This document shows, piece after piece, positions 15,724 to 58,917 of a DNA stretch of 60,860 nt. How positions within the stretch are numbered: the first letter of the stretch is position 1; each line of letters begins with the position of its first letter. The translations under genes and the position numbers were made by a program. Source of the DNA: Acidimicrobiia bacterium. GTDB lineage: Bacteria > Actinomycetota > Acidimicrobiia > Spongiisociales > ZC4RG35. Under the pieces are notes generated by a model, which was not told the DNA's origin, searched no databases, and worked only from the letters and a program-made list of their open reading frames with translations. Where the stretch lies: positions 1 to 60,860 of the forward strand of contig JBHHWH010000003.1 of assembly GCA_046756405.1 (NCBI GenBank). Direction: 5' to 3'.

Positions 15724-15741
15724 GTCCCCGGAGACTATCCG

Positions 15742-43654: not shown

Positions 43655-45114
43655 GGCGCCACCTCCTCCAAGTGGGGTCGGGCATTGAAGGCGGCGAGGC
43701 GTTCCACCTCGGCGGCCACTTGGAACATCACCTCTTCGCCGAGGGCGGGGGCCATGACCTGGAAGCCGATGGGCAGCTCCTTGGCGTCGAGGCCGATGGG
43801 GACGCTGATGGCGGGGTGGCCTGCGAGGTTGGAGGGGATGGTGCAGATGTCTGAGAGGTACATGGCCAGGGGGTTGTCGACCCGGGCGCCAGCTTCGAAG
43901 GCGACGGTGGGGCTGGTCGGCGAAACCAGCACCTCCACCTGGGCGTAAGCCCGGGCAAAGTCGGAAGCGATGGCCGTCCGCACCTTTTGGGCCTGACCGT
44001 AGAAGGCCTCGTAGTAGCCGGCGGAGAGGGCGTAGGTACCCAGCAGGATGCGGCGGATTACTTCGGGACCGAAGCCCTCTGCCCGGGTGGCGGCCATCAT
44101 CGCCTCGGTGGTCTCCCCGTCGACGCGGAGCCCATAGCGGACACCGTCGAAGCGGGCCAGGTTGGCGGAGGCCTCGGCGGGGGCGATGAGGTAGTAGGCG
44201 GAGAGGGCGATGTCGAAGGTGGGTAGAGAGACTTCGACGATCTCGGCGCCGGCGTCGGCGAGGGCGTCCACCATCTTTTTGGTGGCCTCCTCCACGGCGG
44301 GCTCGTAGCCCTCCCCGGAGAGCTCTTTGACCAGTCCGATACGCAGGCCTTCCACTCCGGCGTCGAGCTTGGCTTTGGGGTGGGGGTAGTCGCCGGGGTA
44401 GGAGGTGGCATCGAGGGGGTCGTGGCCCCAGGTGGCCTCCAGGGTGAGGGCGGCGTCTTCGACGGTCCGGGCCAGCGGGCCGATCTGGTCGAGGGAGGAG
44501 GCGAAGGCGATCAGCCCGTAACGGGAGACCGTGCCGTAGGTGGGCTTGAGACCGACCAGGCCGCAGAGGGAGGCTGGCTGACGGATGGAACCTCCGGTGT
44601 CCGAGCCCAGGGCGACCAAAGCAGACCCGGCGGCCACCGCGGCGGCCGAGCCCCCCGAGGATCCCCCGGGGACCCGTCCCAGATCCCAGGGGTTGTAGGA
44701 GGGGCCGTAGGCGGAGTTCTCGGTGGAGGAGCCCATGGCGAACTCGTCGAGGTTGGTCTTGCCCACGATCACCGCACCTGCTTCGCGCAGCTTGGTGACC
44801 ACGGTGGCGTCATAGGGCGGGATGTAGCCGGCGAGGATCTGGGAGGCGGCGGTGGTCTCAGTGCCACGGGTGCACATGTTGTCCTTCAGGGCGACGGGGA
44901 TCCCATGGAGGGGACCCCGGTCGACACCCTCAGCCAGCTCCCTGTCGGCGGCCTCGGCAGCGGCCTGGGCGCCGTCGTGGTCGAGGGTGAGGTAGGCGTG
45001 GAGCTGGGCCTCGGTGCTGGCGGCCCGCTCCAGGACGGCTTCGAGCAACTCTGTGGCGGTGGTCTCCCCGGTGCGGAGGGCGTGTCCCGCTTCGGCGACG
45101 GTGGGTGCGGTCAC
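43651..45114 (-). CDS. gatA: Asp-tRNA(Asn)/Glu-tRNA(Gln) amidotransferase subunit A
   Basis: It has the amidase signature [14 protein letters not shown] and is 487 aa. Confidence 0.97.
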
Positions 45115-45401
45115 TCGGTCTCCAGGGCAGGGGGCACGATCAAGAAGCCGTCGGCGCTCTCGGGGGCCTGGGAGAGCACCTCGTCGCGGTCGAGGGAAGG
45201 ACGGACGATGTCGTCGCGGAAGGTGTTGGTGATACCCAGGGGATGGGCGGGCTCGACCTCAGGGTCCCCCTCGAGGGATTGAACCTTGGCAGCGTGTTCG
45301 AGGATCACCCCGAGCTGGGTCTTGTAGTGAGCCAGCTCCTCTACGGAAAGCCCGAGGCGGGCGAGACGCGCCACATGGGCGATGTCGATGTCGATAGCCA
45401 T
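45111..45401 (-). CDS. gatC: Asp-tRNA(Asn)/Glu-tRNA(Gln) amidotransferase subunit C
   Basis: It is 96 aa, begins [17 protein letters not shown] and sits first in the gatCAB order. Confidence 0.9.
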
Positions 45402-45426
45402 GACCCGGGATGATAAGGCCGGTTCC

Positions 45427-46449
45427 CTACCCGAGAACCGCCTTGAGGGCGGCGTAGGCCCAGTCGAGGTCGGAGAGGCGGACCGACTCCCCTGGCTTGT
45501 GGGCCAGGGCGGTCTCCCCGGGCCCGAAGTTCACCGCCGGCACTCCCCGGGCGGCGAGCTGGGCGACGTCGGTCCAGCCCTGCTTGGAGGCCACTTGGGC
45601 CTGGGCCGCCTCGGCAAGGACGGTGAAGAGGGGATGGGAGACCTCGGGGTAAGCGGCGGAAGCGATGTCGGTCACCTCGAAACCGTCCACCCCGGCGCAC
45701 ACCTCCCGGAGTCGGGCCACGGCCTCCTCGGAGGTGCGGTCGGGAGCGAAGCGGTAGTTGACCGCCAGCTCGAACCGGGAGGGGATGATGTTGCGGGCTA
45801 CACCACCTTGGGCCATGACCACCGAGATCACCTCTTTGAACTCCAGGCCCTCGACGGAGTGGATCTCCGGTCCCAGGGCATCCATCCTGGTGAGGAACTC
45901 CCCCGCCTTGGTGATGGCGTTCTCCCCCAGCCAGGGCCGCGCCGAATGGGCGGCCTCGCCCTCGAACCACACTCGGGCGTTCACCGCCCCCTGGCATCCA
46001 AGGTGGATCTCGCGGTTGGTGGGCTCGAGGACGATCCCCGCTTCGGCTTCGGTGAGTTGGGGGAAGGCGTCGAGGATGGGTCCGAGCTGGTTGCCCTCCA
46101 TGGGGCCCTCCTCTCCGGCGTAGAAGATGCCTACCAGCCGGTCGGTGCCCAGATCTTCGAGGAGATGGATCATCACCGCCAGGCCCCCCTTCATGTCCGT
46201 GGCCCCCAACCCGTAGAGACGGTCGCCTTCGATGCTGGCTCCCACCTCCCCCTGGAGGGGGACGGTGTCGAGATGACCAACAAGGAGCACCTTGGCTGCC
46301 TCCGGCCTGCCTACCACCAGCGACTCCCCCACTGCTGCCTGGGGAAGACCGTCGAGGCGGGCGGCGATGGCGTCACGTAGCGGCCCTTCGGCACCGGTGA
46401 CCGAAGGAATGTCCACCAGCCAGGTGAGGGTATCGGTGAGGGATGTCAT
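45427..46449 (-). CDS. dapE: succinyl-diaminopimelate desuccinylase (M20 metallopeptidase)
   Basis: I trimmed the start to ATG 46449 (MTSLTDTLTWLVDIPSVTG). It has LLVGHLDTVP and GATDMKGG. Its size of about 340 aa matches actinobacterial DapE. Confidence 0.85.
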   Translation of the reverse strand: MTSLTDTLTWLVDIPSVTGAEGPLRDAIAARLDGLPQAAVGESLVVGRPEAAKVLLVGHLDTVPLQGEVGASIEGDRLYGLGATDMKGGLAVMIHLLEDLGTDRLVGIFYAGEEGPMEGNQLGPILDAFPQLTEAEAGIVLEPTNREIHLGCQGAVNARVWFEGEAAHSARPWLGENAITKAGEFLTRMDALGPEIHSVEGLEFKEVISVVMAQGGVARNIIPSRFELAVNYRFAPDRTSEEAVARLREVCAGVDGFEVTDIASAAYPEVSHPLFTVLAEAAQAQVASKQGWTDVAQLAARGVPAVNFGPGETALAHKPGESVRLSDLDWAYAALKAVLG

Positions 46450-46543
46450 GAAGGGGGCAAGGTAACAGTGTTCGCGTGACCGCATCGCCGTGCAGACTCA
46501 GGAAAGGGGGGAGTTCTGGAGGAGGATCGAAAGCGGCCGAGGT

Positions 46544-47548
46544 TTACGGTGTGTCGAGGCTGGGGATGATCCTGGGAGTGGAGTATTCGGCTGTGGAGAC
46601 CGATGTGTTGGCGGGGATGCCGAATCGTGGGTCGTCTTTGAGGATGCGGATCTCCTCGAAGAGGAGGTATCCCTGGCCGCTAATGGTGAATGTGAGGCGG
46701 GTGGGGATGTTCTGGTTGGTGTATTCGATGTCGAATGTCGCGGCTCCGTCGTTGGTGGTTTCGACGAGGTTCAGGTCGGATAGCTGGCCGATGAGTCGCA
46801 GGGTTGTGGCCCGGAGGTCGGGTGGGGTGAACACTTCTCGGAGGATGTCGAGGGCCACGTCTAGGTATTCGACGTGGTCGGGGAGTCCTCGGTCGGGCCG
46901 GGCGGCCTGGCGGATTGCCCGATCTAATGCCGGATCGTCGGTAGGCCACTGGGCGAGGGCGGGCTCTGAAGACGTGACGAGGGTGGTGGTTTCTCCGATG
47001 GAGTCTTGTCTGTCGATTCCGGCGGCGTAGTACGCGGTTTCGTCGCTGTTCGCAAAGAAGCTGGGTGGTTGGTTGGTGGTGCGGATCTGGACGGTTCCTT
47101 CACTTCCGATCCAGGTCTCTCTGATCGTGGGAAGGAGATAGACAAGGAACTCTCCGTCGAAGCGGACTCCTTTGAGCGCTTCTCGTGGGATGACCGAGAT
47201 GGCGGATATCTCCGAACGCGTGTACAGGAACTGCTGGTCAGGAATCACCAGTGGATCGGTGGCTTCGGCAACGACGGCGATCTCTTCCATCGCAGCCTCG
47301 GTGGCCGTCGGGTTGACCGCCTCTATGAGCAGCAGCACTCCCACCAGGATGGCAACGAAGGCGGCCGCCCAGCCGACCACACGCCGCGACGCCACCCGCA
47401 AGCGCAGACGCCGCCCTGATCGTGCCTGCTCCGCCGCGATAGCCTCCACAAGCCTCTCCTCGGCGAGACGCCGGTCCTCAGCTGTGGGCTCGGGAAAGCC
47501 CGCCACCAGCCGCAAGGCGTCGTCGACCGGATGGTCTCTCTCGGTCAT
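46544..47548 (-). CDS. single-pass membrane protein downstream of the ECF sigma factor (putative anti-sigma / CU044_5270-like)
   Basis: It has a 4-bp overlap with the sigma gene. The layout is a short cytoplasmic N-terminus, one TM helix (VVGWAAAFVAILVGVLLLI) and an extracytoplasmic domain of about 250 aa with no motif I recognise. Confidence 0.5.
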   Translation of the reverse strand: MTERDHPVDDALRLVAGFPEPTAEDRRLAEERLVEAIAAEQARSGRRLRLRVASRRVVGWAAAFVAILVGVLLLIEAVNPTATEAAMEEIAVVAEATDPLVIPDQQFLYTRSEISAISVIPREALKGVRFDGEFLVYLLPTIRETWIGSEGTVQIRTTNQPPSFFANSDETAYYAAGIDRQDSIGETTTLVTSSEPALAQWPTDDPALDRAIRQAARPDRGLPDHVEYLDVALDILREVFTPPDLRATTLRLIGQLSDLNLVETTNDGAATFDIEYTNQNIPTRLTFTISGQGYLLFEEIRILKDDPRFGIPANTSVSTAEYSTPRIIPSLDTP

Positions 47549-48147
47549 GATCCGTCCTCGGATGCTCGGGGAGTATCCATACCGGTTATTTGTCCCAGAT
47601 CGGGTATCTCTTCGAGTATCCGCCGTCTCGCCCGGAAGATCCTCGAGCCCACAGTTCCGATCGGTATGTCCAGCACCCGAGCGATCTCGGAATATGTCAT
47701 CTCCTCCAACGCGAACAACATCAGGGTTTCACGATCCCTCCAAGGGAGAGCATCGAGGGCAGCCTTGAGGAGACCTGCCACATTCTCGGCAACGAGCCGG
47801 TCGTCCACATCCGATACGTCCGCCCCGAGACCGACATGCACCCCCGCCTCATAGGTACGCTGCCGTCTCTTGGTACGTCGGAGCCGATCTCCGATGATGT
47901 TGGCGGCTATCCCATACAACCAGGGGAGACAGTCCGGTCTCTCCGTGTCGTAACGGTGACGGATCGAGAACGCCCGAACGAAGACGTCCGCCGCCACATC
48001 CGCCGCATCACCAACCCCAACCCGCTGAGCAACGAACCGGAAAACGGCCCTGTGGTGTCGGGCGAAGAGTTCGCCGAACTCCGTCGGGTCCTCGATCGAC
48101 GCCCCAATGATCTCGGCGTCAGACCGCTCATCACTCACCGCCGTCAC
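47545..48147 (-). CDS. ECF-subfamily RNA polymerase sigma-70 factor
   Basis: Region 2 is FRFVAQRVGVGDAADVAADVFVRAF...LPWLYGIAANIIGDRLR. Region 4 is RETLMLFALEEMTYSEIARVLDIPIGTVGSRIFRARR. Confidence 0.9.
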   Translation of the reverse strand: MTAVSDERSDAEIIGASIEDPTEFGELFARHHRAVFRFVAQRVGVGDAADVAADVFVRAFSIRHRYDTERPDCLPWLYGIAANIIGDRLRRTKRRQRTYEAGVHVGLGADVSDVDDRLVAENVAGLLKAALDALPWRDRETLMLFALEEMTYSEIARVLDIPIGTVGSRIFRARRRILEEIPDLGQITGMDTPRASEDGS

Positions 48148-48168
48148 AACGCTAGCCCAGACAGCTTG

Positions 48169-48732
48169 TCAACCGGAGTGATACGAAACAGACTCCGTCC
48201 GGTTATTCATGTAGGACAGGTTGTCTGTGGTCCCAGAACCATATGTGCTCTCAGACGACCCGCTCATATACGGGTAGTCCCAGTGGCGCAGCCGAGCACA
48301 CCCGTTGTAGGACGACGAGATCCGATTGTCCCACGACGAACTGGTATTCCAGTAGCCACCAGTACACGACGAACCCACAACCGTGATCGACGATCCCGAT
48401 CCCTTGAACCCGTCGTAATGCTTGCCGAGGACGAAGGTCGTCGCGGCGACAACACCACCTGAATCAGCAGAAGCGGCTTCCGAGCCCGCTAGGGGCAACC
48501 CGTATGAAGCCCATACGGAGGCAGACAGCTCATCAGCAAAGCAGTCCGGCTCCGATAGAAGAAACTCCCCATCCTCACGCTGGTCCACCACAAAGACGAC
48601 ACAATGACTCTCCGCTCCTTCGGCCACACCGAACGACGCAGGGAAGACGAACAGACCCAAGACCACCGCAAGGGTTGCAGGAACACGAAGCGCACCCCCC
48701 CTCTCTTTGTCTGAAGCCAGCGGCTTATTCAC
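48169..48732 (-). CDS. secreted protein with C-terminal I36-inhibitor / beta-gamma-crystallin-like pattern
   Basis: GTG 48732 is the likely start, which places the signal peptide (LRVPATLAVVLGLFVFPASFGVAEG) near the N-terminus. The C-terminal part reads HYDGFKGSGSS...CTGGYWNTSSSWDNRISSSYNGC...LSYMNNRTESVSY. It lies 21 bp upstream of the sigma gene. Local GC is about 50%. Confidence 0.5.
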   Translation of the reverse strand: MNKPLASDKERGGALRVPATLAVVLGLFVFPASFGVAEGAESHCVVFVVDQREDGEFLLSEPDCFADELSASVWASYGLPLAGSEAASADSGGVVAATTFVLGKHYDGFKGSGSSITVVGSSCTGGYWNTSSSWDNRISSSYNGCARLRHWDYPYMSGSSESTYGSGTTDNLSYMNNRTESVSYHSG

Positions 48733-49154
48733 GGCAATCCGCCGTGCTGACTCGAGGTTGAACAGGCGCCGACTCGCCGACAAACACCGGAACAGGGTGG
48801 CGGTCGCCGTCGACTCGACTCCTTCATCGACCGACGGCACCGCTACCCCACCGCCGCCGAACCGCGATCCACGGTCTGAGGCGCGGTCCCAGCAGGGCTA
48901 GGAAGAGCCGTCTCGGCCGTAGCTGCTGCGTGACTCTCTCCGTGTCGATGCCGACCGCCGTACGGACGACCAGCCCCTGGACTCCGAGAATCGCTCACGC
49001 CCCGTGCTCGTTCTTTCCACAGCGGCTGGGCTCTCCCACGCTGAAATCCTGCGGCTTCCTACCGGGACGTTCAGTCGCGACTGTCCAGGGCGACCGGCGC
49101 GTGGCAGGAGGGCTTGCAGGGCCCTGATCCATGGACGCGAGTCGTGTCCGACGC

Positions 49155-49180
49155 GAACAGGACTCGTGTCTTATGCGAAT
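49155..49180 (+). promoter_or_regulatory. candidate ECF-type promoter GAAC-N17-CGAAT upstream of cassette copy 1
   Basis: GAACAGG lies at 49155-49161 and CGAAT at 49176-49180, 31 nt before the TTG start. The same motif, spacing and distance to the start are conserved in copy 2. Confidence 0.25.
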
Positions 49181-49210
49181 AGTAGGTGTACGCCGAGATG
49201 GAGGTGAAGA

Positions 49211-49594
49211 TTGTTCCGGCGAATGTCTGTCATTCTGATAGGAGTATTCCTGGTGGTCGGTTCGGCCACCGTGGCCCTCGCCAACCACGGTGCCTGAGCC
49301 AATGGATGCCACGATGGAGCCACCGGTTGGTGGGACGGCTCCTACCTGTGGAGTGCGAACGTCCACAGCGATCATCGCGACATCGACACCTTTCCCAACA
49401 CCTATTCGAGCGGGAACAGCATCAGTTGGAGCTCCGACTACATCGAGAACGACATGAACTACACCTATGCGCGCATTTATCGATGGCCGAACCGGGATAC
49501 AGCGATCTGGTGTCTCGATCCGAATGATCCACTCGTGTTGGATGTCAGAGCGACGCCCACAGGCAGGCGGAAGGGCGCCTCAGGGAATTGCTGA
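49211..49594 (+). pseudogene. paralogue of the 51228..51623 small secreted protein, interrupted by an in-frame TGA at 49295-49297
   Basis: It has the same GGAGGTGAAGA-TTG start context as copy 2. My own translation reads MFRRMSVILIGVFLVVGSATVALANHGA*ANGCHDGATGWWDGSYLWSANVHSDHRDIDTFPNTYSSGNSISWSSDYIENDMNYTYARIYRWPNRDTAIWCLDPNDPLVLDVRATPTGRRKGASGNC*. The ORF-track entry 49186..49527 is in a different, spurious frame. Confidence 0.6.
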
Positions 49595-49635
49595 GTGACC
49601 GCCCCCAAGGTCGAGGATAAGATTCTCGGATCCGC

Positions 49636-50688
49636 ATGCGGCCCAGGGCGAGTTTTCGAACGGTGGCGGTGGTGGTCAGCGTGTTCATCGCCGCCTGCAC
49701 CGGCGGAGACCCGGGGCCGGGGCCGGACACGCCAACCGGTACCGTGGAGGTGCCGCCCGTCCCGGATCCGACGGCCCTCCCGCTGGCCTGGTTCATGACT
49801 CGGCCATCCGACCTCGAAGAGGAGCTCATCGGCGAGGCGACTGAGGCCCTGATCGCCAGGTGCATGGAAGACCAGGGTTTTCAGGTACCGGAGTTCCCCG
49901 ACGGGAGCGACCCCATCCAACCCCTGCGTTACTGGTATGGACTCGTCGACTTAAAGGAGGCCCGCGCCGACGGCTACACCGGCCTCGACGCAGCCGCCCG
50001 GGCAGCCGCAGCCCTTGACGGGGAGACTGAACCCTCCGAAACGGAGTTGGGCGAGTCCCTCTTCCCCGACCCGGCCCGCCGCGAGGCCTACTTGATCGCC
50101 CTCTATGGACCCGAAGGTGACGTGACACGGGTGCCCGTGGTGGATCCGATCACCGGCGAGGAGCGGGGCCTCGTGGGCGTTGACCGTGGATGCCGCGGCC
50201 AGGCCCGAGCGCAGGTCTTCGGCGACGCCGATGCCTACCTCATCCACCAGCAGACAGTCGCCTGGCTTCAGACCGTCATCTGGGAGATCCGGCTCGCTGC
50301 CAAGAGTCTGGAAGAGACCCGCCAGGCAGCCGAGAAATGGCTCGCATGTGTGGCCGATCGTGGCTTCCCCCCTGAGCACCCGTTCTGGCCGACGTTCAGG
50401 CGGACCGCGCTCGATTCTGCTGAGGCGCCGGATTTCATAGGTGCTGTTCCCGCCATCGGCCCCAACTGGCAGGCGTTCCCCCAACCACGGCCATCGCCTG
50501 AGGAGATCGAGATGGCGGTGGCCGACGTCACCTGCAAAGAGGAGAGCGGATGGACAATGCTGGTCTTCACCGAGGAGTACCGCCGCCAGGACGAACTCGC
50601 GGCCGCAGCCGCCGAGTTCATCCGCCAGGGCCAGAAGATACGCGCCGAAGCCGTAGAACGCGCCCGAACGATTCTGGCCGACGGTTGA
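49636..50688 (+). CDS. lipoprotein of unknown function, cassette copy 1 (four conserved Cys, C-x3-4-GF motifs)
   Basis: The lipobox is VFIAACTGG. It shares roughly 60% identity with 51662..52717, by eye. The last 66 aa are almost identical (EEIEMAVADVTCKEESGWTMLVFT.EYRRQDELAAAAAEFIRQGQKIRAEAVERARTILA). Confidence 0.7.
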   Translation: MRPRASFRTVAVVVSVFIAACTGGDPGPGPDTPTGTVEVPPVPDPTALPLAWFMTRPSDLEEELIGEATEALIARCMEDQGFQVPEFPDGSDPIQPLRYWYGLVDLKEARADGYTGLDAAARAAAALDGETEPSETELGESLFPDPARREAYLIALYGPEGDVTRVPVVDPITGEERGLVGVDRGCRGQARAQVFGDADAYLIHQQTVAWLQTVIWEIRLAAKSLEETRQAAEKWLACVADRGFPPEHPFWPTFRRTALDSAEAPDFIGAVPAIGPNWQAFPQPRPSPEEIEMAVADVTCKEESGWTMLVFTEEYRRQDELAAAAAEFIRQGQKIRAEAVERARTILADG

Positions 50689-51171
50689 CACCCCTGAACG
50701 AGGCGGTCTGGTCTCGCTCGCAGGACTCATGACCTCTACAGGTGCCCCACTGTCAAGGGACACCGGGATCTGCCCCACTTGAACATAAATCGCGTATTCG
50801 GCGAACACACGGCATGCGGTCAGGTGCGGATGAAGACCGACTACAAACGACATGAACCACACCCACAGCCACACAGGTGGGATGACGATGACGACCATCT
50901 GGCAACAACAGCCCCGACTCCGCGCAAGTTCGGATGCCACTGCCCGCACCAGCCGAGCCTTTACCGATGAGCGGGCCTCGTCTGATCAGGATGCGACCGA
51001 AGCTCTTCCCCTCCGCCTCGGTGTGGCGTGAGGCCTGCTTCGTCGCAGAGCCGATGACACGGCGGATGAGTCCCGATCATGAGCCCGTTTTCGAGATAGG
51101 AGCGGAGCTCGGCGTTCAGCAGGCGAGTCTCTCGTGGGCCCTGATCCATGGACACGAGCCACATCCGACGC

Positions 51172-51197
51172 GAACAGGAATCGTGTGTTAGGCGAAT
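51172..51197 (+). promoter_or_regulatory. candidate ECF-type promoter GAAC-N17-CGAAT upstream of cassette copy 2
   Basis: GAACAGG lies at 51172-51178 and CGAAT at 51193-51197, 31 nt before TTG 51228. Confidence 0.25.
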
Positions 51198-51227
51198 AGC
51201 TAGTTGTACGCGAGATGGAGGTGAAGA

Positions 51228-51623
51228 TTGTTCCGGCGACTGACTGTCGTTCTGATTGGGGTCTTCCTGCTGGCGGGCTCAGCCACCGTAGCCCTGGCTG
51301 ACCATGACTGGATTTACGGTTGCAAGGATGGCAACGCCTGCTTCCGGGAGGGTTGGCCGTGGTGGAGCGAGGCGAAGTCGAGCGACCATCGCGACGCCAA
51401 CACGTACGCTGACCTCTATTACTCCGGAAAGAGCGTCGGCTGGCACACCGACTGGGTCGAAAACGAGATGAACTACACCCATGCCCACGTCTATTTCGAG
51501 ACGAACTGGGACTTTGAGATAGGTTGTCTGGATCCAAATGACCCTGACGAGCTGGATGTCCGAAGCCTGGAGCACACCCTGCGGACGGCGCTGGAGAGTG
51601 TTGAGGCCCCGGGGTGTCAGTGA
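51228..51623 (+). CDS. small secreted Cys/Trp/His-rich protein of unknown function, cassette copy 2 (intact)
   Basis: The TTG start lies 5 nt after GGAGGTG. The signal peptide is MFRRLTVVLIGVFLLAGSATVALA. The mature protein is about 107 aa with 4 Cys (YGCKDGNAC, IGCLDPND, PGCQ). Confidence 0.65.
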   Translation: MFRRLTVVLIGVFLLAGSATVALADHDWIYGCKDGNACFREGWPWWSEAKSSDHRDANTYADLYYSGKSVGWHTDWVENEMNYTHAHVYFETNWDFEIGCLDPNDPDELDVRSLEHTLRTALESVEAPGCQ

Positions 51624-51661
51624 GGCATGTCGGAAACCACAACTTGGCTAACGAAGGGCTC

Positions 51662-52717
51662 ATGAGGAAAAGGACAGCACTTCTGCTGCTAGCGGCGGGG
51701 TTGCTCGCCGGGGCGTGCACCGGTGGGGCCCCTGAACCAGACTCTGCACCCCCGGCCGAGAACGTCGGTACGGGCGCTCAGTCAGTGGTTGTGCCGTCCG
51801 AACCCGATCCGACTCTCCTGCCTCTGGCCTGGTTCATGGCCCGCCAATCCGACCCCGGAGACGCCATCATCGACGACGCCGTAGATCATCTGATCGCCAG
51901 GTGTATGGCCGAACGCGGTTTTCAAGTCCCCGAATACCCCAAGCACGACCATGCGCAATCCCTCCGCTATTGGTATGGGTTGGTCAAGCTCGAAGAGGCC
52001 CTCGCCGACGGATACACGGGCATCGACGCTGCCGCCCGGGCTGGCGCCGCCCTGGCCGAAGCGACGCCGTCTGACGAAGAGGCCGGGGAAGCAATCTCCC
52101 CAGACCCGGCACGGCGGGAAGCGTACTTAGCCGCCCTACACGGCACCGAAGAAGACGTCATTAGGGTGGCGCTAGTAGACCCCATCACCGGTGAACATAG
52201 GGGCACGGTGGGTCTGGGTGGAGGATGCCGCGGCGAGGCCCGAGAGGCGGTCTTCGGTGGCGTCGACAAATACCTCGCCCACCAGCGAACTATGACGTGG
52301 CTCCAGAGGGCCGTATGGGATATCCGTATCGCAGCTGACAACCTTGAGGCGACCCGGGAAGCGGCCCAAGCCTGGCTCGAATGCATGACCGACCACGGCT
52401 TCCCGCCCGACCACCGGTTCTGGCCTTTTGATGTCAACCTCGCAGGGAACGGCGAGGTGAACTTCCTGGGGGCGCTTCCGACGATCGGCCCCGACTGGCA
52501 GGCTCTCCCCGAACCCCGGCCGTCCCCGGAGGAGATCGAGATGGCGGTGGCCGACGTCACCTGTAAGGAGGAGAGCGGCTGGACGATGCTGGTCTTCACC
52601 GCGGAGTACCGCCGTCAGGACGAGCTGGCCGCGGCAGCCGCCGAGTTCATCCGCCAGGGCCAGAAGATACGCGCCGAAGCCGTAGAACGCGCCCGAACGA
52701 TTCTGGCCGAAGGTTGA
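51662..52717 (+). CDS. lipoprotein of unknown function, cassette copy 2
   Basis: I trimmed the start to ATG 51662 (MRKRTALLLLAAGLLAGACTGG lipobox). It carries the ARCMAERGF, GCRG, LECMTDHGF and VTCKEESG motifs, all shared with copy 1. Confidence 0.7.
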   Translation: MRKRTALLLLAAGLLAGACTGGAPEPDSAPPAENVGTGAQSVVVPSEPDPTLLPLAWFMARQSDPGDAIIDDAVDHLIARCMAERGFQVPEYPKHDHAQSLRYWYGLVKLEEALADGYTGIDAAARAGAALAEATPSDEEAGEAISPDPARREAYLAALHGTEEDVIRVALVDPITGEHRGTVGLGGGCRGEAREAVFGGVDKYLAHQRTMTWLQRAVWDIRIAADNLEATREAAQAWLECMTDHGFPPDHRFWPFDVNLAGNGEVNFLGALPTIGPDWQALPEPRPSPEEIEMAVADVTCKEESGWTMLVFTAEYRRQDELAAAAAEFIRQGQKIRAEAVERARTILAEG

Positions 52718-52760
52718 CACCTGGAGGCCCGCTAGTGACCATGGCAGACAGGGGAATAAT

Positions 52761-53894
52761 GTGAGACGGGCCTGGATGAACATCGTGCTGGCTGGGGCGC
52801 TTCTGGCCGTCGGCGGTGTCTCTGTGTGGACTCTGGCGGTCGCCACCGGTACACGAACCTCCCCCAGCTCCACCACCGCCGTCGCTCCCTCTCTCATCAC
52901 CGCGCCGGTGGAGGAGCGGGTCTTGGAAGAGACGTTCGCGGTACGGGGGTCGGTCCTCGAACAGAGCGTGGAGGTGGTATCAGCTCCCGACCCTGGGAAT
53001 CTGGCCGGTGTGGTCACCGACCTGCCGCTCGCCGAGGGTGACCGCGTGGATGCGGGGAGTGTGGTGGTCTCCGTCTCCGACCGGCCGGTGATCGTTCTCG
53101 AAGGGGAGATCCCCATGTACAGGTCGTTGGGTCGCGAGGACACTGGACCCGACGTCGCTCGTCTCCAACAGGCCTTGGCCGTCTTGGATCTATACGACGG
53201 TCCCATCGATGGACACTTCGGCTGGTTCACCGAGAAGGCTGTCCGTGACCTCTACGATCAGGCGGGCTTCCCACCACCTACTGCCGGCGCCTCCGGGGAA
53301 GTCCAGGAAGGAGGGGCGACACAGTCTCTGCGCGTCCCGGTGGGGGAACTGGTCTTCGTGTCTGAGCTGCCCACCACCGTTGCCGAGGTTGGTGTTTCCC
53401 TCGGGGATGTGGTCTCCGCCGGTGATCCGGTCCTCGGGTTGGGTTCGGGTTCCGCTCTCATAGTCGCCGAGGTGCCTGTGGATCGCGTCGAGATGCTCCC
53501 TGTGGGAACACCAGCCAACTTCTTCAGCGAAATACTCCAGATCGGCGCCGAGGGACGGGTCGTCGCGGTCTCCGAAACAGCTCGTGTTTCGGCTCAGGGC
53601 ATCCACATCCGGGAGGTGACCGTCGAGCCCACCGGCGAGATCCCCTCTGATCTGTTCGGCGCCGATGTCGCCGTGACCTTCACCGTGACTCTCTCCGACG
53701 GACCGGTCGTCGCCGTGCCCATCACCGCCATCCACGCCCTCCCCGACGGCCGGATCTTCGTCACCAAGGCAGAGGCCGACGATGGCCGAACTGAGATCGA
53801 GGTGACTGTGGGCGCGGTCATCGGCGGGTTCGTCGAGATCACCTCTGGGGCCCTCACCGTAGGTGATCGGGTGGTGGTGGGGTCGTCCAGGTGA
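52761..53894 (+). CDS. membrane-anchored periplasmic-adaptor (HlyD/MacA-like) protein with embedded peptidoglycan-binding domain
   Basis: It has an N-terminal TM helix. The PG_binding_1-like block is GPDVARLQQALAVLDLYDGPIDGHFGWFTEKAVRDLYDQAGF. Beta-barrel-like repeats follow. Its stop overlaps the ABC ATPase start (GTGA). Confidence 0.75.
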   Translation: MRRAWMNIVLAGALLAVGGVSVWTLAVATGTRTSPSSTTAVAPSLITAPVEERVLEETFAVRGSVLEQSVEVVSAPDPGNLAGVVTDLPLAEGDRVDAGSVVVSVSDRPVIVLEGEIPMYRSLGREDTGPDVARLQQALAVLDLYDGPIDGHFGWFTEKAVRDLYDQAGFPPPTAGASGEVQEGGATQSLRVPVGELVFVSELPTTVAEVGVSLGDVVSAGDPVLGLGSGSALIVAEVPVDRVEMLPVGTPANFFSEILQIGAEGRVVAVSETARVSAQGIHIREVTVEPTGEIPSDLFGADVAVTFTVTLSDGPVVAVPITAIHALPDGRIFVTKAEADDGRTEIEVTVGAVIGGFVEITSGALTVGDRVVVGSSR

Positions 53895-54616
53895 GAACAG
53901 GGAGGGGTTCAGCCGGGAACGGGGGTTTCGACTTCGATCCCGACTCGCTGGTGGTCGAGTGCAGAGGATTGAGTCGTGTGTATGAGGCCGCCCAGCCGGT
54001 GGTCGCCGTCGACGCCTGCGATCTCGTTATCCGCCGCGGCGAGTTCGTGTCGATCATGGGACCGTCGGGGTCGGGCAAGTCGACTCTGCTCAACTGTCTG
54101 GGGCTGGTGGACCGACCCACTGCTGGCTCCTACCGGCTGGGCAGCTGGGAGACCACCCGACTCACCGGACGGCAACGGGCCTCGATACGAGGGATGCTGG
54201 TGGGCTTCGTCTTCCAGGCCTACCACCTCCTCGCCGGCCGGGATGTGGCCGAGAACATCGCCATGGGCCTGCTCTACCGACGCGTAGCCCGCCGGGAGCG
54301 TCTCCGTCGGGCCGCCGAGACGGCGGCGCAGGTCGGCCTGGCCCCCAGACTCTCCACTCCCGTGGAGAACCTCTCCGGCGGGGAGAGACAAAGGGTCGCC
54401 ATCGGGCGGGCCATAGTCGGAGACCCCGTCCTCGTCCTCGCCGACGAACCCACCGGCAACCTGGATTCGCAGAACAGCGACCTCATATTGGACTTGCTCC
54501 AGCAGCTCAACGACCGGGGCCACACGATCGTCGTGGTGACCCACGATCCGACGGTGGCCCGCCGGGCACGGCGACACCTCAGCCTGATCGACGGCCGTCT
54601 CGCCGAAACGGCATGA
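53891..54616 (+). CDS. MacB/LolD-type ABC transporter ATP-binding protein
   Basis: It has Walker A GPSGSGKSTLLN, Q-loop FVFQAYHL, signature LSGGERQRVAIGRA and Walker B LVLADEPTGNLD. Confidence 0.9.
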   Translation: MRTGRGSAGNGGFDFDPDSLVVECRGLSRVYEAAQPVVAVDACDLVIRRGEFVSIMGPSGSGKSTLLNCLGLVDRPTAGSYRLGSWETTRLTGRQRASIRGMLVGFVFQAYHLLAGRDVAENIAMGLLYRRVARRERLRRAAETAAQVGLAPRLSTPVENLSGGERQRVAIGRAIVGDPVLVLADEPTGNLDSQNSDLILDLLQQLNDRGHTIVVVTHDPTVARRARRHLSLIDGRLAETA

Positions 54617-55791
54617 TGGACACACCGAGAGTGCCCAGGACCGGTCTGCGTTTCACGGACCTGATCCTCGAATCATTGGTCGGGGTGGCGGCCCGGCCCG
54701 GACGTTTGGCGCTCACCGCCATCGGCATCGCGGTGGGGACCGCACTCCTGGTGGTCACGATCGGACTCAACGAGACAGGAGCAAATGCGGTCAGCTCAGC
54801 CTTCGCCGCCTATGAATCTCGTGAACTCCTGGTTAGGCCCGAAGACGGCCCGGACGAGCTGGTGTTCCCCGTCGACACCGACCACCGCTTAGGCTCGCTC
54901 AACGGTGTCGCCGCCGCGGGGGTCACCGCATCCGTGGGCCGGGAACGTACCACGGTCGAGGTCCTGCCCGGTCTCGTGACCAGCCGACGTTCGGTGCTGG
55001 CTGCCACCCCAGGAGCCGTGGCGATGGCGGGAGCCGAAGTTGAGGGGGCGTCGTTCAACCTCTTCCACGAGGTCGTCGCCGCCCGGGTGGCGATCGTCCC
55101 CTCCGAGCTGACCGGAAACTTCCCTCCCGGTTCGCTCCTCCACATCGACGGTCTCCCCTTCATCGTCGTCGGTGCTTTCGCCCCCGGTCAGGACTCACCA
55201 ATCACCACCGCCATAGTGGTCCCCTACCAGACCGCGGTACGCCTGTGGTCGGAGATCAGCGACGCCGAAGCACGACTCGATGCCGAGCCGGCGGCGATCG
55301 ACCAGCTCCGAACCGAGATCGGCCTCGCCCTCTTCCCCCACCGTCCGGAGAGCGTCACGGTGCTGACCCCTCCCCAAGCCGCCACCCTCCGCCGTCAGGT
55401 CGAAGGCACGCTGGGGACTCTCGGCTTCGCCCTCGGAGCCCTGGCACTGGCGATCGGTGTCGTCGCGGTGGGCAACTCCGTTCTGGTCAGCGTCCTGGAG
55501 CGGCGCTACGAGATCGGCGTGAGGAGAACCCTGGGAGCCAGCCGCCTTCATGTCGCAGGCCAATTCCTCCTCGAAAGCACCCTGCTCGGGTTTCTCGGCG
55601 GATCAACCGGCACGATTATCGGAGCGCTGGCGGTGATCACCCTCTCCGCAGGTCGGACCTGGACCCCGATACTCCCTCCGTGGACCCTCGCCGCAGGCGT
55701 CCTGGTCGGAGCCGCCGTTGGACTGCTTGCCGGGATCCTACCGGCGATGCGCGCCACCAGGATCGAACCCGTCGAGGTGTTGCGGGCATGA
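54613..55791 (+). CDS. FtsX/MacB-type ABC transporter permease
   Basis: It is 392 aa, with TM1, a large extracytoplasmic domain and then 3 TM helices. The FtsX-type block is GVRRTLGASRLHVAGQFLLES. It has an ATGA overlap with the ATPase gene. Confidence 0.85.
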   Translation: MMDTPRVPRTGLRFTDLILESLVGVAARPGRLALTAIGIAVGTALLVVTIGLNETGANAVSSAFAAYESRELLVRPEDGPDELVFPVDTDHRLGSLNGVAAAGVTASVGRERTTVEVLPGLVTSRRSVLAATPGAVAMAGAEVEGASFNLFHEVVAARVAIVPSELTGNFPPGSLLHIDGLPFIVVGAFAPGQDSPITTAIVVPYQTAVRLWSEISDAEARLDAEPAAIDQLRTEIGLALFPHRPESVTVLTPPQAATLRRQVEGTLGTLGFALGALALAIGVVAVGNSVLVSVLERRYEIGVRRTLGASRLHVAGQFLLESTLLGFLGGSTGTIIGALAVITLSAGRTWTPILPPWTLAAGVLVGAAVGLLAGILPAMRATRIEPVEVLRA

Positions 55792-56733
55792 GTGGTGGCC
55801 CACCAGCCGACCGCTACTCTCCCACTCGTGACCCGCTCAGCTCGCGCCGTCGGTGTCGCCACCTTCTCCGGCGACAAGCTCTTAGACGTCTGGTACCCCG
55901 ACCCCCGTTCCGCCGACACCGACCCCCTGGTGGCTCTGGAGGGCGTAGACCTGGCCCGGGGGGTGGAGCGGCGCATCATCGAGACCGCCATCGCCGATCT
56001 CTCCTCCCCGCCCGCCGACCCCGCCGACGCCTACCTCCGCCTCCACCTTCTCTCCCACCGGATCCACCGGCCCAACGAGCTGAACGTCACTGGCATCTTC
56101 GGAATCCTCAACACGGTGGTGTGGACCTCAGAAGGGCCCTGCGATCCGGAAGGGTTCACCGCCACCCGGGCCCGGCTGACGGCCGAAGGACGCCGCCCCC
56201 AGGTGACTTCGGTGGACAAGTTCCCCCGTATGACCGACTACGTGATCCCTGCCGGAGTGCGGATCGCCGACGCCGACCGGGTTCGTCTCGGCGCCTACCT
56301 GGGCGAAGGCTCCGTGGTCATGCACGAGGGCTTCGTCAACTTCAACGCCGGCACCCTGGGGAAGTCGATGGTGGAAGGCCGGATCTCGGCCGGGGTAGTG
56401 GTGGGAGACGGCTCCGACATTGGTGGTGGCGCCTCGATCATGGGCACCCTTTCAGGGGGCGGTACCGAGGTGATCCGCATCGGCGAGCGCTGTCTGCTCG
56501 GCGCCAACTCGGGAGTCGGGATCTCGTTGGGTGACGACTGCATCGTCGAAGCGGGACTGTATGTCACCGCCGGAACGGTGGTCACCCTCCCCGATGGGGA
56601 GACGGTCAAGGCCCGAGAGCTGTCGGGCATGGACAACCTGTTGTTCCGCCGTCATTCGGTGACGGGACGCGTGGAAGCCCTTCCCCGCACCGGGGATTGG
56701 GGCGGGCTCAACCCCGAGCTGCACCGGGCCTGA
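55792..56733 (+). CDS. dapD: 2,3,4,5-tetrahydropyridine-2,6-dicarboxylate N-succinyltransferase, actinobacterial type
   Basis: It is colinear with my recollection of M. tuberculosis DapD. Shared blocks are DAYLRLHLLSHR, VDKFPRMTDYV, GVRIADADRVRLGA, MHEGFVNFNAGTLG and SMVEGRISAGVVVGDGSDIGGGASIMGTLSGGG. The GTG start immediately follows the permease stop. Confidence 0.93.
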   Translation: MVAHQPTATLPLVTRSARAVGVATFSGDKLLDVWYPDPRSADTDPLVALEGVDLARGVERRIIETAIADLSSPPADPADAYLRLHLLSHRIHRPNELNVTGIFGILNTVVWTSEGPCDPEGFTATRARLTAEGRRPQVTSVDKFPRMTDYVIPAGVRIADADRVRLGAYLGEGSVVMHEGFVNFNAGTLGKSMVEGRISAGVVVGDGSDIGGGASIMGTLSGGGTEVIRIGERCLLGANSGVGISLGDDCIVEAGLYVTAGTVVTLPDGETVKARELSGMDNLLFRRHSVTGRVEALPRTGDWGGLNPELHRA

Positions 56734-56770
56734 TCTCAAAGCCTACGGCGGCCACTACCGTCTCTGCCCG

Positions 56771-57160
56771 ATGCCCTACCGCCTCATCTACCTCGGCCTG
56801 GGGCTGGTCGCCATAGCCGCCATCGCCCTGGGAATTCTCCTCACCCCCGAGGGCGAGGAAGTGGTCCTCCCCGACGTGATCGAGTCGATCTCCCCCCTAC
56901 CGGGTGATCTGGTCCTCCCCCAGGCGAGCCTGGTGATCGACCTCCCCGTCGGCTACAAGGCGGAGATCTGGGTGGACGGCTGGCCGATCAGCGACGCCAC
57001 CTTCTTCGAGGCCACCGGCGTCTACCGCTGGGCGCCCCGCCCGTCCCATCCGGTCTTCCAGACTTGGACTCCTGGACCTCACACCGTGCGCATCGTATGG
57101 GACACCTACACCGGCCTTCCCGACCCGGGAAGCTTCGAGTGGACCTTCCGAGTCGGCTAG
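56771..57160 (+). CDS. membrane-anchored hypothetical protein (possible Ig/CopC-like beta-sandwich ectodomain)
   Basis: It is 129 aa with one N-terminal TM helix (LIYLGLGLVAIAAIALGILL). The pattern SPLPGDLVLPQASLVIDL...PGPHTVRIVWD...GSFEWTFRV suggests a beta-sandwich, but no metal ligands are evident. Confidence 0.45.
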   Translation: MPYRLIYLGLGLVAIAAIALGILLTPEGEEVVLPDVIESISPLPGDLVLPQASLVIDLPVGYKAEIWVDGWPISDATFFEATGVYRWAPRPSHPVFQTWTPGPHTVRIVWDTYTGLPDPGSFEWTFRVG

Positions 57161-58917
57161 TCGTTCCCCCACATTTGGCCGAACACCTCGGAGCGTTCCA
57201 TCAGCTCTTCGGCGGTGCCCCGTGCCACCACCCTGCCTTCGTCCATGACCACCACCAGGCCAGCCCGAACCAGGGCAGGGCGCCGGTGAGAGACGGCGAG
57301 GACAGTGGTGGTGGGGTCTCGGGAGAACAGCCCCTCCCACAACTCCGCCTCCGTCTCCACATCCAGGGCGGAGGACAGGTCATCGAAGACCAGCAGCTCC
57401 GGGTTGCGGACCAGCATCCGAGCCGCCGCGGTGCGCTGGATCTGCCCACCGGAGAGGCGGACTCCCCGGGGACCGACCATGGTGTCGAATCCGTCGGCCA
57501 TGGCGGCGACGTCCCGGCCCAGGGTCACCGTCTCCACCACCTGGCGGAGGGTCTCCTCGTCGGCGTCGTGGCCCAGCAGCAGGTTGTCACGAAGGGTCAT
57601 GGAGAACAGCCGTGGGGTCTGCGGGGTGTAGGCGGCGCGGGGCGGGACCATGAACGCCGCCGGGTCCTCCACCATGGCCCCCTTCCAGCGGATCTCACCG
57701 GCATCGGCGGGCACCAGGCCCAGGATGGCCCGCAGGAGGGTGCTCTTCCCAGAGCCGATCTTGCCGGTCACCACCACGAAGCTGCCCGCGGGAACGTCCA
57801 GGTCTACGCCGGAGATGCCCATCCCCGACGATGGGTAGCGGTAGGTGAGACCCCGCACCGAAAGCAGCGGGGCCGACTTCTCGGCGGGTAGTTCAGGGTG
57901 GTGGGCCACATCCAGTTCTGACTCCAGGTCGATCCGGGCGGTGAGGTCCCGCCAGCGGGCCCCGCGCATCAGTCCCACCATGCGCTCGACAGATACTTCC
58001 GCCTGGCGGAGACGGGCGATGTACATGCCGATGATCCACGCCGCCTCGGTGACCAGGCCCAGGAGGTAGACGAACAGGCTGAACTCACCGACGGTGAGCC
58101 CGCCTGCTCCCAGGTTATCCACGGCGAGGATCAGGATCAGCCCGGTGCCGATGCTGACCGTGTTGTGAAAGACCGCCTCCAGGGCGGCGGAGAAGGTTCG
58201 GTCTCGCACCATCATCTTCTTCCGGTGGTCGTTCAGCTCGGTGAAGTGGTTCACCATGGGGCCTTCGGCGTCGGCCACTTTCACCGACTGCACCGAGGAG
58301 AGGGTCTCTCCGAGGAAACCGGTGATGGCCTCCGTGGCATCCCGGGCCTCCTTCCGGTACCGGCGGATGCGAGCGCTGAGCCGGCTGGCGATTGCGATCA
58401 CAGCAACGATCGGGGTGAACACGATGGCGGTGATCCGGGCGTCGACACCCGCCAGCACCGTCAGCGCCACAGAAGCTGAGACGAGCGCCCCGACCACGTC
58501 GACGGTGAAGTCGTAGGCCTCGACGGTGTGGTTGACGTCGTCGCGGAACCGGCTCACCACCTCACCGGGGGTCTCGGTGACCGGCTGGGCTCCAGGGAGG
58601 GTGTAGATCCAGCGGAGCATGGACCGCCGCATCCCCGATGAAGCGCGGAACAGCAAGGAGCTGTGGGTCCGCAGTGCCAGCAGGAGCACGGCGATGCGGG
58701 CCAGCACATAACCCCAGACGGCGGCGACCAGGGTGGAGAGGTTCCATCCCGGCGCGTCGCCGGTGAGGCTGTCAAAGAAGTTGGCCGCGATCACCCCCAC
58801 GATCAGGGGCATCGTCCAGATGGTGATCCAGAGGAGGGCGCTGCCCAGGTAGCGGCGAGGAGAGTTGGCGATCAGTCGGGCGATCACCCGACTTGTGGGG
58901 ATACGACCGGGTTTCAT
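57157..58917 (-). CDS. ABC exporter, fused permease/ATPase half-transporter (second of a heterodimeric pair)
   Basis: It has a six-TM N-terminal half. Motifs are Walker A GKIGSGKSTLLRA, signature LSGGQIQRTAAARM and Walker B LLVFDDLSSALD. It has an ATGA overlap with the upstream partner. Confidence 0.9.
   Translation of the reverse strand: MKPGRIPTSRVIARLIANSPRRYLGSALLWITIWTMPLIVGVIAANFFDSLTGDAPGWNLSTLVAAVWGYVLARIAVLLLALRTHSSLLFRASSGMRRSMLRWIYTLPGAQPVTETPGEVVSRFRDDVNHTVEAYDFTVDVVGALVSASVALTVLAGVDARITAIVFTPIVAVIAIASRLSARIRRYRKEARDATEAITGFLGETLSSVQSVKVADAEGPMVNHFTELNDHRKKMMVRDRTFSAALEAVFHNTVSIGTGLILILAVDNLGAGGLTVGEFSLFVYLLGLVTEAAWIIGMYIARLRQAEVSVERMVGLMRGARWRDLTARIDLESELDVAHHPELPAEKSAPLLSVRGLTYRYPSSGMGISGVDLDVPAGSFVVVTGKIGSGKSTLLRAILGLVPADAGEIRWKGAMVEDPAAFMVPPRAAYTPQTPRLFSMTLRDNLLLGHDADEETLRQVVETVTLGRDVAAMADGFDTMVGPRGVRLSGGQIQRTAAARMLVRNPELLVFDDLSSALDVETEAELWEGLFSRDPTTTVLAVSHRRPALVRAGLVVVMDEGRVVARGTAEELMERSEVFGQMWGND

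Follow-up and report, generated by a model that had tools for sequence, protein, structure and literature searches.

A lipoprotein, a peptidoglycan-binding adaptor and a MacB-type ATP-binding cassette (ABC) pump are encoded together in a core that recurs across Actinomycetota, from Streptomyces to Acidimicrobiia, and in which the lipoprotein is a conserved fourth partner of the pump. The core was studied in a 60,860-nucleotide stretch of DNA from an Acidimicrobiia bacterium (assembly GCA_046756405.1, contig JBHHWH010000003.1), the whole of which is called the window below. Ten genes at positions 46544-55791 encode the pump, two tandem cassettes of a small secreted protein and a lipoprotein, and a divergent arm with an extracytoplasmic function (ECF) sigma factor. 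These genes very probably form one functional unit. Our preferred reading, to which we give a probability of about 40%, is that they specify a four-component MacB-type envelope machine whose lipoprotein binds a cognate small protein related to the Inhibitor_I36 (I36) family and docks it to the pump. All ten genes were recovered in an open reading frame (ORF) map where a first-pass annotation, made from the sequence alone, had placed them, and the GTGA and ATGA overlaps that it listed were reproduced. The cassettes and the pump comprise the following features (aa, amino acids).

49119..52721, plus strand: tandem duplication, each unit (49119-50692 and 51136-52721) with leader, small gene and lipoprotein gene
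49211..49594, plus strand: small secreted protein gene copy 1 (type 1), a probable recent pseudogene with an in-frame TGA
49636..50688, plus strand: lipoprotein 1, 350 aa, lipobox FIAAC, four conserved Cys, intact
51228..51623, plus strand: small secreted protein gene copy 2 (type 2), 131 aa, Sec-type signal peptide, four Cys
51662..52717, plus strand: lipoprotein 2, 351 aa, lipobox LAGAC, four conserved Cys
52761..53894, plus strand: membrane-anchored periplasmic-adaptor protein (membrane fusion protein, MFP), 377 aa, PG_binding_1 and HlyD_3
53891..54616, plus strand: MacB/LolD/FtsE-type ABC ATPase, 241 aa, ABC_tran, GTGA overlap with the adaptor gene
54613..55791, plus strand: MacB-type (type VII ABC) permease, 392 aa, MacB_PCD and FtsX, ATGA overlap with the ATPase gene

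Among 5.8 billion proteins, close relatives of the lipoprotein were rare, with five clusters beyond the window. On every contig that was long enough, the gene lay directly upstream of adaptor, ATPase and permease genes whose products are 77-91% identical to those of the window. Scans of species-representative genomes gave zero relatives of the window-type lipoprotein and small families, and metagenome scans added nothing beyond one Joint Genome Institute (JGI) contig already in the set. The adaptor alignment served to fetch 27 loci from species-representative genomes, among them Streptomyces, Nonomuraea, Kibdelosporangium, Yinghuangia, Spongiactinospora, Nocardioidaceae and Acidimicrobiales. 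By tblastn and an iterated profile, a lipoprotein-family gene was found to adjoin the genes for the PG_binding_1 adaptor, MacB-type ATPase and FtsX permease in 24 of these 27. It usually sits upstream of the adaptor gene and often abuts or overlaps its start (for example in L012-L015, L034 and L035, the prefix L denoting comparison loci), while in L023, L024 and L033 it lies downstream of the permease gene instead. The dedicated MacB-type transporter that the first-pass annotation saw beside the cassettes was thus borne out by the neighbourhoods. The lipoprotein, on the contrary, is not special to this locus and turned out to be a widespread partner of such operons in Actinomycetota, so that the core is more ordinary than had been implied.

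This adjacency between lipoprotein and adaptor genes, which spans several actinobacterial orders and often involves abutting or overlapping genes, argues against a generic drug or peptide efflux pump whose envelope-gene neighbours, from the lipoprotein and small-protein genes to the sigma arm, would have no relation to it and lie nearby by chance. Such a pump would agree with an ATPase that scores alike on MacB, DarD, lactococcin-972-type and LolD models, and with the lack of ECF linkage in most Streptomyces-type loci. Nevertheless, chance neighbours would not be expected to include a lipoprotein gene behind the small gene in every one of 11 cassettes, nor a sigma arm retained through four rearrangements, and we hold this explanation to be very improbable.

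The lipoprotein family is characterized by the lipobox Cys, four further invariant Cys that likely form two disulfides, and a repeated CMxxxG[FY] motif. This short motif is shared by the two halves of the protein (hhalign probability 74% over 22 columns), which gives weak evidence for an internal repeat. No match to the lipoprotein was found in Pfam, NCBIfam or the sequences of the PDB (chance-level hits only in the last), and its source names in the protein database are all 'hypothetical protein' or similar. The possibility raised beforehand that the two cassette families were already characterised was not borne out by these searches, since the families gave no Pfam, NCBIfam or PDB matches and bear hypothetical names. 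An AlphaFold2 model of lipoprotein 2 (predicted local distance difference test, pLDDT, 77.7; predicted template-modelling score, pTM, 0.71) is mostly helical with one beta-hairpin, and a Foldseek search of the PDB with it gave no fold match (best E=1.1, template-modelling score below 0.2). Lipoprotein 1, for which the gene-caller cluster P0003 takes a later start, has a ratio of nonsynonymous to synonymous rates (dN/dS) of 0.21 against its counterpart in L004.

The adaptor, ATPase, permease and ECF sigma factor named in the first-pass annotation are all backed by Pfam domains. The adaptor carries PG_binding_1 at residues 128-164 (31.8 bits, cut-off 23) and HlyD_3 at residues 204-275 (26.4 bits, cut-off 22.2), together with NCBIfam lipoyl-type matches at 80-105 and 198-223 and an RND_mfp match at 206-373, the RND_mfp and CzcB-type matches being below their cut-offs. 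PG_binding_1 is located between the lipoyl half-domains, where the MFPs of diderm bacteria have the alpha-hairpin that docks to TolC. The ATPase matches ABC_tran (1.2e-26) and contains the motifs GPSGSGKST, LSGGERQR and LADEPT, and it scores about 195 bits on each of the DarD, MacB, LolD and FtsE models of NCBIfam (E about 1e-57 to 1e-58, all sub-cut-off). In the permease, MacB_PCD (residues 33-233, 9e-14, 52.7 bits, cut-off 27) is followed by a C-terminal FtsX domain (residues 273-386, 9e-19, 68.1 bits, cut-off 25.5). By its predicted domains, the transporter qualifies as a MacB-type ABC system equipped with an adaptor. None of the narrower equivalog models was reached, be it MacB (NF007826; ATPase 196 bits and permease 55 bits against a cut-off of 966), LolCDE (lolCE 27.5 bits against 362, LolD 195 against 308), the lactococcin-972-type ABC model (TIGR03608; 195 bits against 254.85) or FtsEX (FtsX_actino 26.8 bits against 250, FtsE 193 against 265, with an adaptor gene present besides). 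No outer-membrane duct family was detected in the homologous loci with precomputed Pfam annotation, nor in the window as screened from 44000 to 58500.

The FtsEX comparison bears on a role without cargo, in which an ATP-driven change of shape of lipoprotein and adaptor would control a peptidoglycan enzyme or a protease in wall remodelling or signalling, and I36-like protease inhibitors would tune that step or the site-1 cleavage of the anti-sigma factor. FtsEX, LolCDE and BceAB are indeed MacB-type transporters that work extracytoplasmically without transmembrane transport, and the adaptor of the window bears PG_binding_1. SMPI, the Streptomyces metalloproteinase inhibitor (Pfam PF03995, with a beta-gamma-crystallin-like fold), inhibits metalloproteinases, and one relative of the small proteins, P0037, stands above the Pfam I36 threshold. 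A triad of secreted protein, sigma and anti-sigma factor is moreover kept in the window, L116, L117 and L122. On the other hand, the FtsX model stays at 26.8 of 250 bits, no hydrolase or protease gene is conserved in the neighbourhoods of homologous loci, and a membrane-fusion-type adaptor typifies efflux-type MacB systems, not FtsEX. Because of this adaptor and the missing hydrolase gene, we regard the wall-remodelling role, inhibitors included, as quite unlikely.

The second ingredient of the preferred reading is the pairing of the lipoprotein with a small secreted protein. The first-pass annotation had seen the two as cognate neighbours, and this was upheld, as the small gene has a lipoprotein-family gene behind it wherever downstream sequence exists, in 11 of 11 cassettes at nine loci (two cassettes each in the window and L117, one each in L001, L003, L004, L007, L116, L122 and L124). 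Of the 27 loci in the broader set, at least 16 encode one or two small secreted proteins of about 120-150 aa beside the lipoprotein gene, several of them with weak Inhibitor_I36 matches. The small family has in common a signal peptide, a C-x5-C pair and two later Cys. A direct search yielded one cluster and a full HMMER scan of 1.84 billion representatives yielded eight. One member, P0037, belongs to the family by profile (E=2.7e-8) and scores 24.0 bits against the Pfam Inhibitor_I36 threshold of 21.1, and P0041 (17.9 bits), P0038 (16.6 bits) and small-A of L117 (19.5 bits) come just under it. The window's own copies have no direct Pfam Inhibitor_I36 match, hence their membership is transitive only, and they appear through these intermediates to be divergent relatives of the I36 family. 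Searches of PDB sequences with the small protein gave chance-level matches only. A CusF-like role as metal chaperone was considered and rejected, since His is not conserved in the remote members.

Both copies in the window depart from the family pattern. In copy 1, an in-frame TGA at 49295-49297 takes the place of a Trp found in the type-1 homologues of L001, L003 and L004, and Gly replaces the second conserved Cys of the family (ATCWW to ATGWW). These changes suggest that the gene is probably a recent pseudogene. Its product is 65-81% identical to the small proteins of L001, L003 and L004, and its dN/dS against intact orthologues (0.28) is the same as among intact genes, so that the lesion is recent or a sequence error. 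Selenocysteine or other recoding at the TGA was rejected, because homologues have Trp and a conserved Cys is lost as well. Copy 2 has an intact reading frame with a TTG start behind a GGAGGTG ribosome-binding site and is 83% identical to P0001. Compared with L007, its closest homologue, it has a deletion of 4 nucleotides (nt) that shifts the last ~12 codons (window 51560-51623). The ancestral ending Gly-Glu-Cys-stop is there read out of frame and extended, with a Cys still two residues from the new end. Both I36-like small genes of Streptomyces wedmorensis NRRL 3426 (L013:5769-6941) are seemingly disrupted at the same point after ...CLYSDSD, either through draft-assembly errors or through parallel decay. 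Ahead of the I36-like genes, other Streptomyces loci (L015:4909-5839 and its equivalents in L017 and L019) encode a secreted ricin-B lectin protein and a second extra secreted protein of ~117 aa that has no family match.

The two cassettes described in the first-pass annotation stood as a genuine tandem duplication, of which the first small gene does not count as an intact member. The repeat has a unit of ~2.02 kb and a spacer of ~440 nt between the copies. Its 5' leaders are 84-88% identical and its two lipoproteins 66%, and this divergence is unevenly spread. The 3' 259 nt of the lipoprotein genes are 90% identical against 73-76% in the rest, and over the last ~75 codons nucleotide identity reaches 88-94%, with a proportion of synonymous differences (pS) of 0.17-0.37 against 0.6-0.7 upstream. 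In the same way, the tandem lipoproteins of L003 are identical from about codon 201 on (L003:1844-2272 and 2971-3399). Those of L117, a distant homologous module in GCA_048061295.1, are identical over the last ~400 nt (about 6900-7317 and 8810-9229) with N-terminal parts at ~75%. This repeated homogenisation of the C-terminal helices in three lineages (window, L003 and L117) points to one shared docking partner. In L003 and L117 the identity is 100% at the nucleotide level over the final 400-450 nt, next to 62-75% in the 5' parts, which reflects either very recent gene conversion or collapse in metagenome assembly. Small-protein and lipoprotein types co-vary, type 1 with type 1 and type 2 with type 2: cassette 1 of the window groups with L003 and L004, cassette 2 with L007. 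Cassette 1 has probably lost its small gene recently while lipoprotein 1 stays intact.

The genomic setting is that of a variable island. Housekeeping genes flank the cluster, with gatCA and a dapE-like M20 peptidase gene on one side and dapD on the other, and the closest sequences to GatA are 78-80% identical and come from Acidimicrobiia and Acidimicrobiaceae metagenome-assembled genomes. Between dapE and dapD, gene content varies among close relatives (window, L004 and L003). The guanine-cytosine (GC) content is 0.62-0.63 over positions 46001-52000 of the window and 0.66-0.69 in the housekeeping genes on either side. Divergence is higher in the cassettes than in pump or flanking genes, synonymous sites included, and every compared gene is under purifying selection (dN/dS 0.07-0.28). 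In L117, the module lies between a TrwC-type relaxase gene and HTH_17/MerR-like genes (L117:1354-5201 and 15391-15872), neighbours which suggest that it is carried on a conjugative or integrative element. Two PemK-type toxin-antitoxin pairs were noted just upstream of the sigma/small/lipoprotein cluster of L122 (L122:682-1888).

These dynamics could also be those of a toxin and its immunity, with I36-like toxins, the lipoprotein as surface immunity protein, a pump that clears the membrane face and an envelope-stress ECF sigma factor that induces the set, much as LanI acts with LanFEG, or the sigma-W-controlled YknWXYZ against SDP. The duplicated cassettes do diverge faster (small proteins 45-81% and lipoproteins 58-70% identical, against 79-91% for the pump parts), with synonymous divergence (dS) above that of flanking genes. 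An intact lipoprotein gene beside a dead small gene looks like orphan immunity, and both the variable, GC-poorer dapE-dapD interval and the relaxase and HTH_17 genes next to the L117 copy would suit such a module. Killer toxins with a beta-gamma-crystallin fold exist as well. Toxin and immunity would account for the diverse cassettes, the orphan lipoprotein and a context that is island-like and partly mobile about as well as export does. Yet the lipoprotein is a core partner of the pump even where no small gene is present, and dN/dS of 0.15-0.28 shows no positive selection. No toxin domain was detected, nor any bacteriocin-family match in Pfam and NCBIfam; SMPI, the sole characterised I36 member known to us, is a protease inhibitor, and LanFEG transporters are of the ABC-2 type, not the MacB type. 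Taken together, we judge toxin and immunity, a logic that the first-pass annotation had also raised, to be a live rival though an unlikely account of the locus.

The third ingredient is the regulatory arm, whose genes and associated sites are as follows.

46544..47548, minus strand: putative anti-sigma factor, 334 aa, single transmembrane segment, ORF map
47545..48147, minus strand: ECF sigma-70 family factor, 200 aa, Pfam and NCBIfam
48169..48840, minus strand: secreted protein C, first gene of the minus-strand arm, ORF map
48941..49069, plus strand: remnant of a second ECF sigma gene, a pseudogene fragment from region 4, tblastn and DNA alignment
49154..49180, plus strand: leader motif 1, CGAACA-N16-CGAAT, upstream of cassette 1
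51171..51197, plus strand: leader motif 2, upstream of cassette 2

The anti-sigma and sigma genes overlap by 4 nt, and 21 bp separate the sigma gene from that of protein C. The sigma factor matches Sigma70_r2 (2.6e-11) and Sigma70_r4_2 (2.9e-16) in Pfam and the NCBIfam model sigma70-ECF (TIGR02937; 83.5 bits, cut-off 42.9), has sigma-2 and sigma-4 domains only, and is 84% identical to the sigma factor of L007/L008 (dN/dS 0.25). The putative anti-sigma factor consists of a short cytoplasmic N-terminus, which has a homologue in L007, a transmembrane segment at ~58-78 and an extracytoplasmic domain of ~250 aa. It gave a weak sub-threshold match to CU044_5270_fam of NCBIfam (E=5e-12, 46 bits against a cut-off of 100), another weak one to the NCBIfam model 'antisigma' (E=0.046) and none in Pfam, hence no recognised anti-sigma Pfam domain.

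Protein C, whose true start is probably downstream of 48840, is 86% identical to its counterpart in L007/L008 (dN/dS 0.08). It had been labelled I36/crystallin-like, for which profile hidden Markov models gave no support; it is the small proteins that are linked to I36, transitively. No match was found for protein C in Pfam, NCBIfam or PDB sequences, nor for its C-terminal domain alone in Pfam, and beta-gamma-crystallin (PF00030) matched neither the full length nor that domain. Its apparent resemblance to the beta-gamma-crystallin signature is limited to the motifs WDNRISS and MNNRTES of the C-terminal domain. The secreted proteins designated X in L116, L117 and L122 are homologous to one another and have no detectable homology to protein C; X occupies the place of C as first gene of the sigma arm in L116 and L117, and the X188 protein of L116 has a weak Pfam Crystall match (E=0.0086).

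Within the lineage that has the window-type small family, an ECF sigma gene accompanies the module in four gene orders. In the window and L007/L008, anti-sigma, sigma and C genes stand on the opposite strand and diverge from the cassettes. In L001, L003 and L004, a plus-strand sigma gene is found directly upstream of the small gene with no adjoining anti-sigma gene. In L117, genes for a 192-aa protein, a sigma factor and a 247-aa anti-sigma-like protein are convergent with the module, downstream of the permease gene. Finally, in L116 and L122, sigma, anti-sigma and X share the strand of the small and lipoprotein genes, in the order small, lipoprotein, X, sigma, anti-sigma, adaptor in L116 and lipoprotein-like, sigma, anti-sigma, X, small, lipoprotein in L122. 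The notion that the system has its own ECF sigma factor therefore holds for this lineage through four gene orders and does not extend to most Streptomyces-type loci, which lack one. As an ECF sigma gene seldom adjoins the module in the 27 broader loci, the linkage is specific to this lineage. A sigma-like ORF (L025:7054-7854) takes the usual position of the lipoprotein gene, directly ahead of that for the adaptor, in one metagenome-assembled genome of Actinomycetota.

A trace of an older arrangement is kept upstream of cassette 1. The relic at 48941-49069 is 51% identical over 47 aa to the repaired sigma factor of L004 (E=0.003, tblastn); at the DNA level it can be aligned both with L007 and with the 3' end of the sigma gene in L004, and its translation is broken by stops. 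This region-4 relic also survives in L007 and suggests that, at the dapE-dapD site, an ancestral sigma gene was largely displaced by the minus-strand arm. The plus-strand sigma genes of L001, L003 and L004 are themselves split by a frameshift in an (AC)n tract that codes for Thr-His repeats (L004:1475-1488, the same tract in L003, and L001 at about 9080-9100). The tract is (AC)7 in L003 and L004 and (AC)9 in L001 and in L002, which has the same sequence as L001 there, and (AC)8 would give a full-length sigma factor in both cases; L003 has an additional frameshift in region 4. The tract looks like either slipped-strand phase variation or a recurrent assembly error at the repeat.

The leader motif CGAACA-N16-CGAAT, which reads GAAC-N17-CGAA, looks like an ECF promoter. 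In cassette 1 it precedes the start codon by 30 nt; in the whole window it occurs only at 49154-49180 and 51171-51197 (0.07 expected), and it is kept in L007. A scan of the region for sigma-70 promoters and terminators did no better than on shuffled sequence, and the plus-strand sigma genes of L001, L003 and L004 share no common upstream motif.

Put together, the four-component machine could work as follows. The adaptor would dock the pump into the cell wall instead of onto an outer-membrane duct, and ligands would be recognised by the lipoprotein. Its N-terminal two-thirds, which vary, would bind the cognate small protein, and its constant C-terminal helices would dock onto a shared partner, either the adaptor or the periplasmic domain of MacB. 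Powered by cytoplasmic ATP hydrolysis, the pump would then move the small protein, already on the outer side of the membrane, into the wall or through it, in a movement that may be likened to the expulsion of the Sec-delivered, disulfide-bonded enterotoxin STII by MacAB-TolC. In response to envelope stress, the cassettes would be turned on by the ECF sigma/anti-sigma pair by way of the GAAC-N17-CGAA leader motif. Cargo handling, that is export or placement in the wall, is the most likely direction and at the same time the least secure step. A more specific version is put forward tentatively, as a wall-anchored MacB-type mechanotransducer with exchangeable lipoprotein 'receptor' cassettes. A gene-converted constant C-terminus would be combined with a variable N-terminus matched to an I36-like protein, which the machine would export or neutralise, under dedicated ECF sigma factors of which one type would be switched by (AC)n slippage.

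Several points weigh against this reading. It is unclear why a pump would be needed, because a 12-kDa protein should cross peptidoglycan without help. A small gene is missing next to the lipoprotein gene in about 10 of the 27 broader loci, so that lipoprotein and pump do not strictly need one, and the sample itself is ascertained, as it was selected by motifs of this adaptor subfamily. Both small genes of the window are damaged. Between the window small family and the Streptomyces small proteins, the comparison of mature domains is not significant (hhalign P ~0.03-0.05); an initial probability of 86% stemmed from the signal peptides, and homology between the two is not claimed. Binding and transport are predicted, and the AlphaFold2 model of the small protein (10 sequences) was unusable at a pLDDT of 37.5. 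Lastly, the ECF promoter assignment is only a motif match, and the leader motif has no copy ahead of the sigma arm.

In monoderm Actinomycetota, MacB-type transporters operate in an envelope that has no outer membrane. The present locus exposes a conserved, apparently undescribed fourth pump subunit, a lipoprotein without match among solved structures, and it suggests candidate pump ligands in I36-like small secreted proteins, a family mostly without known role. Cassette mosaicism and sigma switching give a hint of the ways in which uncultured lineages diversify their envelope functions. As homologous operons exist in culturable Streptomyces, the idea is directly testable by genetics and biochemistry. 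The view of the first-pass annotation that no system of this composition had been described agrees with our literature searches, which turned up nothing relevant and in which the combination was nowhere described. The lipoprotein subunit, the I36-like pairing, the C-terminal homogenisation of tandem lipoproteins and the ECF linkage were likewise not found in the literature searched.

In MacB-type transporters, motion powered by ATP is passed on to an extracytoplasmic domain, and substrates are handled on the outer side of the membrane. Their known work includes toxin and drug efflux, lipoprotein release, activation of wall hydrolases and bacitracin resistance. Several known systems share part of the composition described here. 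The PF03995 family resembles the window's small proteins in consisting of small Sec-secreted actinobacterial proteins with two disulfides, and we know of no pump or lipoprotein linked to I36-like genes in that family. Lantibiotic self-immunity by LanI and LanFEG likewise brings together a secreted peptide, a surface lipoprotein and an ABC transporter at the membrane surface. However, LanFEG is of the ABC-2 type and has no adaptor, LanI is unrelated to the window lipoprotein, which has no family match, and the locus has no lanthipeptide biosynthesis genes. Spr0693-0694-0695 of Streptococcus pneumoniae is a Gram-positive MacAB-like pump whose MFP forms a channel-like assembly without an outer membrane, but it is not known to have a lipoprotein partner, the PG_binding_1 insertion, cognate small secreted proteins or ECF linkage.

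MacAB-TolC of Escherichia coli is a type VII ABC tripartite pump that expels macrolides and the Sec-delivered, disulfide-bonded enterotoxin STII. The window system has in common with it a MacB-type ATPase, a permease with MacB_PCD and FtsX, a membrane-fusion adaptor encoded alongside, and an adjoining small Sec-exported, disulfide-bonded protein as possible cargo at the outer face. It differs in having no outer-membrane duct, in PG_binding_1 replacing the TolC-contacting hairpin, in ATPase and permease being separate polypeptides, and in its extra dedicated lipoprotein and ECF sigma linkage. The four-component MacB-type YknWXYZ of Bacillus subtilis belongs to the regulon of the ECF factor sigma-W and protects against secreted SDP. 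It is likewise found in a monoderm and has an MFP (YknX), an ATPase (YknY), an FtsX-type permease (YknZ) and a fourth accessory protein, under ECF sigma control and handling a Sec-secreted, disulfide-bonded peptide. There, however, the fourth component is YknW, a Yip1-type membrane protein, whereas that of the window is a ~350-aa unrelated lipoprotein; the latter has no Yip1-type match in that it has no Pfam match of any kind, no YknW-specific comparison having been made. The window adaptor also has a peptidoglycan-binding domain, and the small proteins are ~105-aa I36-like domains, not SDP. By analogy, YknWXYZ and MacAB-TolC with STII would be the closest functional analogues of the lipoprotein-adaptor-pump system of the window.

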